Assembly: GCA_964016885.1 (NCBI GenBank)
Contig: OZ024745.1
Span: 79,732,001 to 79,796,000, forward strand
DNA length: 64,000 nt
Direction: 5' to 3'
DNA from: Eledone cirrhosa
Lineage: Eukaryota
The position numbers and the translations under genes were made by a program. Shown piece by piece: positions 9,345 to 13,710 of this stretch; the stretch's first letter is position 1, and every line of letters starts with the position of its first letter. The notes below the pieces were generated by a model. That model saw only the letters and a program-made list of their open reading frames with translations, made no database searches and had not been told where the DNA came from.

Positions 9345-10222
9345 ATATATGAGAATAAACATGCTGCGGAGTTGCAAATGGGTTACATATGAATAAAGTG
9401 GTCCTTCATCAGTGATCTTCCAACCATCATCGGTATTTCTTCGCTTTAAAAACCATATACCTCCGGTTGGTGCGAGCAACGGCTAAAGAAAGTCGTTGGG
9501 ACACGTAAATAAAGGGAACAGCGAGAGTGTAAACAAACAAAGATGGTGAAGCAACGAAAAGTGAGGAAGAGCGAGTCAAGTCCAAAAATTTCTATGAATA
9601 TAAGTTCGGTGAAATCGTGAACGAGAGAGAATAAAGACCATCAAACCGGGTTGAAATGTGAGCAAGGGAAGAATTTCGCACAGGTCTAACGGGAGGAAGA
9701 ACGGGTCTAGTCTGTGAATTCAGTAAACATAAGTTCTGTGAAATCGTAGACGAGAGAGAGAGAAAAAATGCCGACCGGCCTGGCCAAGCGTGCGAAAGAA
9801 AAGAATTACGCACAGGTCAAACGGGAAGAAAAAGGAGGAGGAGAGGTAGTAACAGAGAGTGAGTGAGTGAAGGGTGAGGAAGAGGCTAACAGAGAGAGTG
9901 ACTGTTAGAGAGGGTAAAGATACAGAGAAAGAGAAAGCAGTAAGAACGAAATAGACGGGTCACAGCGGGAGAAAAAAATATGTGTAAATATGAGAATAAA
10001 CATGCTGCGGAGTTGCAAATGGGTTACATATGAATAAAGTGGTCCTTCATCAGTGATCTTCCAACCATCATCGGTATTTCTTCGCTTTAAAGACCATATA
10101 CCTCCAGTTGGTGCGAGCAACGGCTAAAGAAAGTCGTAGGGAACAGCGAGAGTGTAAACAAACAAAGATGGTGAAGCAACGAAAAGTGAGGAAGAGCGAG
10201 TCAAGTCCAAACATTTCTATGA
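9345..10222 (-). mobile_element. Non-coding tandem element (641-bp period), rearranged-hammerhead family, subfamily 1
   Basis: 9347-9595 repeats from ~9988; flanked by (TA)n; homologous to 12525-13710 and 40105-40955. Confidence 0.8.
9401..9502 (-). ncRNA. Putative non-circularly permuted hammerhead ribozyme (damaged second copy at 10042-10137)
   Basis: gtcc caacgac..gccgttg c tcgc a ccaacc gga ggtaTA tggtttt taaa gcga a GAAAtacc gatgat ggttgg aagatca CTGATGA a ggac. Confidence 0.7.
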
Positions 10223-11158
10223 ATATATATATATATATATATATATATATATATATATATATATATAGAGAGAGAGAGAGAGAGAGGGAGGGAGGGAGAG
10301 AGACAACGGGGGAGAGAGAGAGAATGGAAAACGAAAAATCAGTGATGCATCGGAACTCAATTTATTGTGTGTTACAATTGTTTCCCCGGCGAACAGCTCG
10401 AGGTGCGATCCGTGTGTGGATCGACCTGACTCTAGATTCGCAGGTTCCTCAGACACGTCTATTATTTCGGATCATATCCTTTTTCTGGGGTTTTCTGGCC
10501 GTACAAGCCTATATCGTCCACCTTCATCCACTTTGCGCGTCCTTGGGTTGGTCACTGGTTAGTGACGTCATCATTATTCTGACCACTTGTAGCAGCCCGC
10601 TGACCGCCAGGGCGTGAGCTGTCACCCACTGTCCCGTCGGCAAAATTACTGTTTGTCAGCTCACACTCCGACTCGCACACACACACACACACACACACAC
10701 ACACACACACACACACACACACACACACACACACACACACACACACACACACACACACACACACACAGATACTGACAGATACATACAGAGTAGCGTGTGT
10801 GCTTACGTTCACACACAGAAATAGTCACACAAATATACACATACATGCACATAGAGAGGCACACACGCATCTATATTTATCTCCAAATCACTGATTTGTC
10901 GAGCAAACTTGCCAAAACCACTTCTAAAAAAATTTTTTTGGGGTGTTAGTAGGCGTCAGTCATCTTACCATCCCATTCCTTCTAACTAGCCTCTGTGTCA
11001 CGTGATTGATTCTTTAGAATTGGCCATTTGACCTGAAGCAGTGAGAATTTCGGTACATAGAATCCAGTCCTCGCCAGCTGTTCGATCTACCGAATTATTA
11101 TTATTTTTATATGAGCCGCCAGTGTCCGCGCATTGCCTGGAGACTTAACTGAGAATAG

Positions 11159-11240
11159 ACTCCCTGATGACGCAATGAATTCTCGACAGTTGGATTATGT
11201 AACTGTCTTTATCCCATTGCAGAAACTAATTAGTTGGAGT
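11159..11240 (+). ncRNA. Type I hammerhead motif with extended stem II
   Basis: actcc-CTGATGA-c gcaatg..gacagtt/aactgtc..cattgc a-GAAA-ctaattag-TT-ggagt. Confidence 0.8.
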
Positions 11241-12256
11241 GAAAATTTAAGTAAGTAAAAAATTTAAAAAAAATTTTTTTAAAAAGATATTTTCTTACTT
11301 TACGTCTTTTATATATATATATATATGGATATATGTGTGTGTGTGTGTGTATATATATGTATATATATATATATATATATATATATATATATATATATAT
11401 ATATATATATATATATATATATATATATATATGTATATATATATATATGTATATATATATATATATGTATATATGTATATATATATATATATATATGTAT
11501 ATATATATATATATGTATATATATATATATATGTATATATATATATATATATATATATATATATATATGGATATATGTGTGTGTGTGTATGTATATGTAT
11601 ACATGAGTGTAGACGTATGTGTGTATACGTGTGTGTGGGCGTGTGGGTGGGTGTATATATATATATATATGTATGTGTATGCGTGTATGTATGCATATGT
11701 ACGTGCAGATGTGCATATATGTGCACGTAAATGTATGTGTATATATATCTGTGAGTGTATGTGTATGTATATGATGCGTACGTGTGTGTGTGCATGTATA
11801 TATACGGGTGCGTGTACGTGTGTGTGGCTGTGTATATGCGTGCGTATATACACGCGCGTGTGTGCGTGTGTGTCTCTCTATGTGCATGTATGTGCATATT
11901 TGTGTGACTATTTCTGTGTGTGAACATAAGCACACACGCCACTCTGTATGTATCTGTCAGTAACTGTGTGTGTGTGTGTGTGTGTGTGTGTGTGTGTGTG
12001 TGTGTGTGTGTGTGTGTGTGTGTGTGTGTGCGAGTGGGAGTGTGAGCTGACAAACAGCAGTAATTTTGCCGACGGGACAGTGGGTGAGTGACAGCTCACG
12101 CCCTGGCGGTCAGCGGGCTGCTACAAGTGGTCAGAATAATGATGACGTCACTAATCAGTGACCAACCCAAGGACGCGCAAAGTGGATGAAGGTGGACGAT
12201 ATAGGCTTGTACGGCCAGAAAACCCCAGAAAAAGGATATGATCCGAAATAATAGAC

Positions 12257-12344
12257 GTGTCTGAGGAACCTGCGAGTCTAGAGTCAGGTCGATCCACACA
12301 CGGATCGCACCTCGAGCTGTTCGCCGGGGAAACAATTGTAACAC
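12257..12344 (+). ncRNA. Type I hammerhead motif with branched stem II (mirror copy at 10369-10456 on minus)
   Basis: gtgt-CTGAGGA-acctg..caggt cgatcc..ggatcg..-GAAA-caattg-TA-acac, then aataaa. Confidence 0.78.
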
Positions 12345-12524
12345 ACAATAAATTGAGTTCCGATGCATCACTGATTTTTCATTTTCCATTCTATAATACT
12401 CTGCTCCGTAGGAGCATAGAGTGCTCAACCGGCATACCGGCTATGGAAGCATCTTAGCTACAATTAGACACACACACACACACACACACACACACACACA
12501 CACACACACACATATATATATATA

Positions 12525-13710
12525 TGAATAAAATTAGTCCTTCATCAGTGATCTTCCAACTTTCATTGGTATTTCATCGTTTTAAAAATCATATACCTCT
12601 GGTTGGTGCGAGCAATAACAAATAAAGTTATTGGGACAAGTAAATTAGGGTGAAACGAGCGAGACATGTACACAAACAACGATGGTATGGCAACGGAAAG
12701 ATAGGAAGAGACAAGCACATGAAATCTGTAAGCTTAAGCTTGGTGAATTCATGGGCGAGAGATACAGACCATCCGACATGGGTGAGATGTGAGCGAGAAA
12801 AGGATTTCACACAGGTCAAACGGGAGGAAGTGAGAGAGGGGGAGAAGCAGAGAGTGAGTGAGTGGAAGTGTGAGGAAGAGACTAGCAGAGAGAGAGTGAC
12901 TGGCAGAGGGGGTAAAAAGAGGAGAGACAGTAAGAAAAAAACAGACAATCGCAGCTGAGGAAAAAATATAAATATGAGAAAAATGGAGCGCTGCGTGGTT
13001 GCACATGGGTTACATATGAATAAAATTAGTCCTTCATCAATGATCTTCCAACTTTCATTGGTATTTCATCGCTTTAAAAATCATATACCTCTAGTTGGTG
13101 CGAGCAATAACAAATAAAGTTATTGGGACAAGTAAATTAGGGTGAAACGAGCGAGACATGTACACAAACAACGATGAACCCATGTGCAACCACGTAGCGC
13201 TCCATTTTTCTCATATTTATATTTTTTCCTCAGCTGCGATTGTCTGTTTCTTTCTTACTCTCTCTCTCCTCTTTTTACCCCCTCTGCCAGTCACACTCTC
13301 TCTCTGCTGGTCTCTTCCTCACACTTCCACTCACTCACTCTCTGCTTCCTCCCCTCTATCATTTCCTCCCGTTTGACCTGTGTGAAATCCTTTTCTCGCT
13401 CACATCTCACCCATGTCGGATGGTCTGTATCTCTCGCCCATGAATTCACCAAACTTAAGCTTACAGATTTCATGTGCTTATCTCTTCCTATCTTTCCGTT
13501 GCCATACCATCGTTGTTTGTGTACATGTCTCGCTCGTTTCACCCTAATTTACTTGTCCCAATAACTTTATTTGTTATTGCTCGCACCAACTAGAGGTATA
13601 TGATTTTTAAAGCGATGAAATACCAATGAAAGTTGGAAGATCACTGATGAAGGACTAATTTTATTCATATGTAACCCATGTGCAACCACGTAGCGCTCCA
13701 TTTTTCTCAT
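12525..13710. mobile_element. Rearranged-hammerhead family, subfamily 2: tandem (492-bp period) on minus joined head-to-head at ~13176 to an inverted copy on plus
   Basis: 12525-12685 repeats at 13017-13175; 13176-13710 is a reverse-complement copy; motifs at 12537-12637 (-), 13029-13129 (-, core mutated to TTGATGA) and 13555-13655 (+). Confidence 0.85.
13555..13655 (+). ncRNA. Putative non-circularly permuted hammerhead ribozyme
   Basis: gtcc caataac..gttattg c tcgc a ccaact aga ggtaTA tgatttt taaa gcga t GAAAtacc aatgaa agttgg aagatca CTGATGA a ggac. Confidence 0.75.

Follow-up and report, generated by a model that had tools for sequence, protein, structure and literature searches.

Predicted S-G-C hammerhead ribozymes in a non-coding, probably Penelope-mobilised repeat of the Eledone cirrhosa genome

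The window analysed here is a stretch of 64,000 nucleotides (nt) from Eledone cirrhosa (GenBank assembly GCA_964016885.1, contig OZ024745.1, positions 79,732,001 to 79,796,000), and the subject is a non-coding repeat within it that carries a hammerhead-like motif and ends in (TA)n microsatellites. Three insertions of the repeat, A, B and C, lie in the window. Aligned with one another, they are 69-83% identical over the greater part of the unit, and (TA)n is found at all four of their 3' ends (those of A, of C and of both arms of B). An earlier, sequence-only reading had taken the interval 9345-13710 for a retrozyme-like unit; the non-coding, dispersed and high-copy character of that unit holds, but the interval comprises two separate insertions, A and B, which are set apart by microsatellites and other repeats. 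Predicted cut sites on the minus strand are paired at 9456/10097, 12592/13084 and 40216/40713, which yields the same periods of 641, 492 and 497 bp as had been read before, and a seventh predicted site lies on the plus strand at 13600. The (TA)n context and the lack of a credible open reading frame (ORF) were also read correctly: the longest ATG-initiated ORFs on either strand of the circularised units are 32, 85 and 95 amino acids.

Insertion A (9337-10227, minus strand; locus L031) consists of 1.41 units of a 641-nt subfamily, whose unit differs from that of B in an internal duplication of about 130-140 nt. It has the longer of two types of 3' end described below, at 9337 in (TA)n, and is truncated on the 5' side at 10227. 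Its two ribozyme copies, both on the minus strand, are A1 (9401-9502, with CUGAUGA starting at 9412 and a predicted cut after 9456) and A2 (10042-10143, with the core at 10053 and a predicted cut after 10097). In A2, a 15-nt deletion changes the 5' partner of the helix that follows the core.

Insertion B (locus L001) has two arms joined 5'-to-5' at 13176/13177, where a head-to-head inverted copy had been read before. The inverted arm (12519-13176, minus strand) contains 1.34 units of a 492-nt subfamily, has a short-type 3' end at 12519 and carries copies B1 (12537-12637, minus strand; core 12548, predicted cut after 12592) and B2 (13029-13129, minus strand; core at about 13040, site 13084). 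The third core position of B2 is changed from C to U, and this copy is likely to be impaired. The main arm (13177-13718, plus strand; 1.09 units) runs through a long-type 3' end, with its tail of about 46 nt, into (TA)n and carries copy B3 (13555-13655, plus strand; predicted cut after 13600, core 13644-13650). There is one intact core per arm. The main arm begins at unit position 73, which is also the position of the short 3' end; this may be chance. Insertion C (40094-40954, minus strand; locus L062) holds 1.73 units of a 497-nt subfamily. Its cores at 40172 and 40669 are intact, cleavage is predicted after 40216 and after 40713, and its units are 99.2-99.4% identical where they overlap. Within the window, the release of a monomer would be possible from C only, or perhaps also from A.

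How are the hammerhead blocks arranged? In the strand that runs into (TA)n, the site block precedes the GAAA block, which in turn precedes the CUGAUGA block. This S-G-C order is a non-circular permutation, and not a circular one as in hammerhead types I-III; it is the type SGC of Eckert et al. (2023, PMC10085705). A descriptor that required stems I and III in addition to the S-G-C order matched six sites in the window, all of them within the A, B and C repeats and with copy B2 missed; 100 dinucleotide-shuffled sequences gave 0.05 sites on average. A canonical type I, II or III reading was considered and ruled out by the unpaired stem II and by the absence of a hammerhead match in Rfam: no match reached the gathering threshold in the window, and none of the 61 matches at E<=5 in 8500-14300 was a hammerhead.

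The fold was compared over 16 ribozyme variants chosen by the authors, one per subfamily or sampled copy. The core reads CUGAYGA in all 16, GAAA in 15, and the site is UA or UC in all 16. Over 35 proposed pairs, 94.1% of the cells are paired, compared with 27-47% in slid controls, and 17 of the 35 pairs show double (compensatory) changes, a result that none of 500 shuffles equalled. Stem I is 92% paired, with double changes in five of its seven pairs, and stem III is 99% paired, with double changes in two of five. A continuous stem II between the CUGAnGA and GAAA strands is not formed (36% of cells paired). In its place there are one direct pair (81%), a hairpin (96%) and two helices (100% and 90%). 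One of these helices joins the strand after the core to a segment lying about 90 nt upstream, the other joins the strand before GAAA to a further upstream segment, and the hairpin links these two segments; a single base pair may bridge the core directly into stem II. Because the helix after the core is invariant across the 16 variants, its support comes entirely from the distant families L105, L125 and L126, compared by eye. In these and in L034, unrelated stem sequences retain the same layout, again by eye. RNAalifold independently recovered four of the nested helices. The rearranged hammerhead suggested earlier is thus borne out by the S-G-C order and the covarying stems. Neither the division of stem II nor the connection with Naiads discussed below had been recognised in that reading.

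Several points weigh against a catalytic reading of this fold. The structure was first drawn from subfamilies A to C, and a set of related sequences may outdo shuffled ones without any structure. Moreover, the single direct pair between core and stem II is unpaired in three of the 16 variants, subfamily A included; the fold therefore departs from the validated hammerheads of the literature compared.

An extra helix extends stem III past an internal loop. In a kink-turn, two helices flank a bulge of 3 nt with tandem G.A and A.G pairs after it; one is predicted beside stem III from this sequence pattern, which occurs in 14 of the 16 variants. The fold could then be a non-catalytic protein-binding signal, either a kink-turn ribonucleoprotein or a landing site for the reverse transcriptase (RT), that merely keeps hammerhead-like letters, and a split stem II is without precedent in the literature compared. 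This is improbable, since all three blocks of the core are conserved, together with the non-G at the site and the A-U pair that closes stem III, while every stem changes in sequence, and since nematode Naiads, which are Penelope-like elements (PLEs), have textbook cores of type CSG at the same place (by eye). Self-cleavage of the hammerhead RNA is considered likely.

The sequence-only reading had proposed a genome-wide copy survey. In the genome of 3.0 gigabases, exact matches to the core pattern number 15,176 and 938, more than 16,000 in total, against 7 and 15 for reversed controls, and a systematic sample of 800 kb contained four true matches and one false match to the S-G-C descriptor. The first 100 matches in order of position represent 77 insertions, of which 59 have a single core, 10 are tandem, seven are inverted and one is both. 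Tandem arrays therefore exist (11 of 77), but the unit is not tandem in every copy, as the earlier description implied. DNA searches with B, A and C gave 2983, 2179 and 1015 first-look candidates, respectively, and the best 30 of each were used as loci. Nine loci were duplicates of one insertion and were dropped, which left 81 insertions that, as best matches, are biased towards young copies; copies of subfamily C are 97-100% identical. Related families reach a period of 791 nt (L121). An older family (1509 first-look candidates, 30 loci, L274-L303) has a period of about 350-380 nt, the same ribozyme layout and a stem III like that of Naiad_Ovul. Contigs from three sequencing runs (one sample, kind of library not stated) cover the element deeply; none spans the whole stretch, and they carry no information on RNA.

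The ends of the 81 insertions follow a regular pattern. There are two fixed 3' sites, about 46 nt apart: among 108 3' ends, 68 are long (+117-123 from the predicted cut), 22 are short (+67-74) and 18 are of other kinds, and TA repeats follow directly after 82 of the 90 long or short ends. An inverted arm is present in 22 of the 81 insertions, 13 of which combine one long with one short arm. By contrast, 5' ends are scattered, with only one of 80 within 10 nt of the cut site, a figure biased by queries that required sequence spanning the cut. In the 80 insertions with a visible 5' end, length ranges from 0.37 to 4.45 units, so that the description of the repeats as always slightly longer than one unit is loosely true only within the window.

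Could the repeats be nothing but the 5'-truncated ends, known as pseudo-long terminal repeats, of a coding Naiad? Thirty-five of the 80 insertions are indeed shorter than one unit. However, longer copies run into the next unit and not into an ORF, multi-unit arrays contradict the idea, and Naiad coding sequence is attached to none of the 120 family loci; in the 30 loci of the older family there is likewise no ORF nearby and no Naiad protein match. This explanation is hardly credible, and the earlier view of a unit that is not tied to a coding element is upheld as far as Naiads are concerned. Fixed 3' and variable 5' ends, inversions and partial tandems are the geometry of Penelope-like insertion, and the Penelope-like character seen in the window is confirmed across the genome. 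Partial tandems, 5' truncation, 5' inversions and a tail have been described for PLEs (PMC8557442), and the long and short 3' ends fit the two internal RT starts that define a tail in a PLE of the anole (PMC11167929). Mobilisation of the unit by a Penelope-type mechanism is very likely.

Taken together, the repeats probably represent a high-copy mobile unit without coding capacity, which likely descends from a Naiad 3' end, is predicted to undergo S-G-C self-cleavage as RNA and would be copied in trans into (TA)n by a Penelope-like enzyme. In the proposed cycle, read-through transcription of a copy bearing two cores would be followed by cleavage after the UA or UC site, which would free one unit of 492-641 nt, and this unit would be ligated into a circle. 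The enzyme would then nick (TA)n, and reverse transcription would start at an internal position of the RNA, about 73 or 119 nt downstream of the cut. Copying would cross the former cut site, continue for up to about 4.4 rounds and end by truncation or strand inversion. Since copying would start some 73-119 nt downstream of the cut and yet most copies cross it, the template should be continuous across the cut, being either a circle formed by religation or a tandem transcript left uncut.

Which of these two templates is used? Without a circle, the enzyme would copy uncut read-through RNA of partial tandems, arrays would grow by template jumps or unequal crossing-over, and the ribozyme would only trim or destabilise the transcript. 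Most insertions are shorter than 1.6 units, with maxima of 1.59 in subfamily A and 1.88 in B, in line with this view. In addition, uncut RNA is the dominant substrate of the anole PLE in vitro, where cleavage is not needed, and no RNA-seq ends were observed at its cut site (PMC11167929). Arrays of subfamily C, by contrast, reach 4.45 units with an exact period, a fixed 3' end and a non-integer length, linear copying with 5' truncation alone would be expected to shrink arrays over generations, and animal retrozymes do form circles (PMC7229834). The units of one array differ from each other by 0.45% (21 pairs), those of different insertions by 1.8% (45 pairs). The exact arrays and this closer identity favour rolling round a circle. 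On the other side of the balance, the anole results are joined by the similarity within arrays, which is also compatible with local duplication, and by the modest stability of the circular folds (z of -1.4, -2.4 and -2.9; 43-48% paired). We give the circular template an even chance; the alternative cycle without any circle appears rather unlikely.

Does the ribozyme come from Naiads? Craig et al. (2021, PMC8557442) describe Naiads as lacking a canonical hammerhead, with some, Naiad_Ovul and Naiad_Esco among them, marked as 'core' or 'half-core', and report that cephalopod Naiads prefer (TA)n targets. By eye and without alignment, 17 of the 54 published Naiad consensus sequences were found to end in the split S-G-C layout (10) or in type CSG (7); the remainder were not looked at systematically, and record names were deduced from the following header and the order of the table. 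The S-G-C layout is seen in Naiad_Obim, Naiad_Ovul, Naiad_Esco, three Acropora records, three unlabelled records and, more weakly, the record preceding Naiad_Mley. Their stem sequences differ, and the distance from the 3' end is similar to that in the unit. The type CSG ends belong to the seven nematode records. The motif is absent from Naiad_Adux (marked incomplete) and Naiad-1_Skow, whose 3' ends were read whole. Naiad ancestry of the ribozyme and of the 3' end is likely on this comparison.

The identity of a present-day partner is less clear. Naiad ORFs occur in the genome, as confirmed through full-length relatives with an N-terminal GIY-YIG domain and an RT. All 54 and 7 matches of the non-exhaustive protein searches were decayed, with no intact ORF among them. 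Short-pattern searches for a Naiad partner gave one and two matches only, and a homolog search with a decayed fragment gave none. No ribozyme was found downstream of 30 Naiad ORF loci, a weak candidate in L249 having been rejected. The contrast between decayed Naiad ORFs and C copies that are nearly identical counts against the Naiad part of the proposal and leaves a present-day Naiad partner hypothetical. The presence of young PLEs with a C-terminal endonuclease that also insert into (TA)n counts against it as well. One of these, at L122:1966-5735, is near-intact, with one stop codon and an inverted 5' piece in (TA)n, and shares 97.9% protein identity with a copy in L059.

It has to be considered, then, that a ribozyme of Naiad origin sits in a unit now mobilised by these abundant PLEs, which would be compatible with trans-mobilisation as proposed above. 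Such PLEs often share a microsatellite with a unit copy, as in L328. However, their 3' ends and tails are unlike those of the unit (by eye), the core in the L328 family is of type I, and a diverged intact Naiad could have been missed because one protein search took a stricter first look, with 51 candidates scored. Weak GIY-YIG matches beside L328 and L329 were rejected as partners; they come from adjacent elements that lie on the opposite strand or beyond a stretch of (TA)n. Mobilisation by C-terminal-endonuclease PLEs is a real but minority prospect. The enzyme would in either case be Penelope-like, whether a missed Naiad or one of the young families with a C-terminal endonuclease (L122, L328).

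Other repeats surround the insertions. An inverted-repeat element at 8764-9320, with relatives in L121, L200, L186 and L044, has hammerhead cores in canonical type I order at 8871 (minus strand) and 9077 (plus strand). An inverted pair (98%) of another dispersed repeat, at 10321-10649 and 12060-12460, flanks microsatellites; a G-C-S reading of the 12060-12460 copy was dropped, as its CUGAGGA core is not conserved in relatives. The repeat at 10861-11300 has CUGAUGA at 11164, and in its relatives (L129, L161, L208, L027) GAAA stands one base after the core, as in minimal Penelope hammerheads. The hairpin-shaped 3' end of a Penelope-like family lies at 13995-14165; in L328 this end lies downstream of a type I core and an ORF with a C-terminal GIY-YIG domain. 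Ordinary tandem arrays of type I hammerheads occur in L190, L200, L202 and L214, with periods of 467, 469 and 310 nt. A type I descriptor gave 59 matches in 28 of 80 sampled regions, and canonical retrozymes therefore coexist with the S-G-C family in this genome. Finally, a long repeat is present in five to six copies at 17600-20500 and 43900-63800, the final ones spaced 5834 bp apart. The copies have open frames of up to 728 amino acids and are probably an array of long interspersed nuclear elements.

A broader generalisation is tentative and falls slightly short of even confidence: across animals, Naiads and their non-coding retrozyme-like parasites may bear hammerheads that are non-circularly permuted and catalytically active. 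These would be of type CSG in nematodes, whereas cnidarians, cephalopods and probably ctenophores would have a four-strand S-G-C ribozyme whose stem II is split. If this is true, there is a hammerhead architecture outside the six-permutation scheme that drives a circular-RNA copying cycle and provides the ribozyme thought to be missing from Naiads. Non-circular RNA permutations would move from environmental RNA to animal chromosomes, and CUGAnGA with its stem II strand would no longer be an uninterruptible block. The type I descriptors used in retrozyme surveys miss the S-G-C family.

Retrozymes with tandem hammerheads have been described, and so have type-SGC ribozymes. The literature searched, which did not extend to Repbase or to most subscription papers, contained neither the two in combination nor a split stem II nor the link to Naiads, and it gave no account of permuted hammerheads in cephalopods or in Naiads. 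Like the type-SGC hammerheads (HRIMA-1 and variants; PMC10085705), the ribozyme has the S-G-C order, a full core, a short linker between the strands of stems I and II and an added helix near these stems. According to the text of that paper, published examples have a continuous stem II, whereas here it is split, with two upstream segments joined by a hairpin, and the added helix adjoins stem III through the kink-turn pattern. Nearly all of those examples are metatranscriptomic, with none described from the genome of a known organism except one GCS candidate. With non-LTR (long terminal repeat) retrozymes (PMC7229834; Li et al. 2026, 10.64898/2026.07.22.740005) the unit shares its non-coding, low-GC (37-43%) tandem or solo form, one hammerhead per unit, thousands of dispersed copies and proposed mobilisation by PLEs. 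Their hammerhead, in contrast, is of type I and not S-G-C, and their circles, of about 170-400 nt, have been shown, while units here measure 490-790 nt and circles are predicted. The Poseidon PLE of Anolis (Frangieh et al. 2024, PMC11167929) resembles the unit in the two internal RT starts that define its tail and differs in being coding, with a canonical hammerhead whose cleavage is unneeded in vitro. As for the Naiad PLEs (PMC8557442), the unit differs from them in having no ORF, and is like them in its (TA)n target, partial tandems, 5' inversions, tail and, by eye, the layout of the 3' ribozyme.

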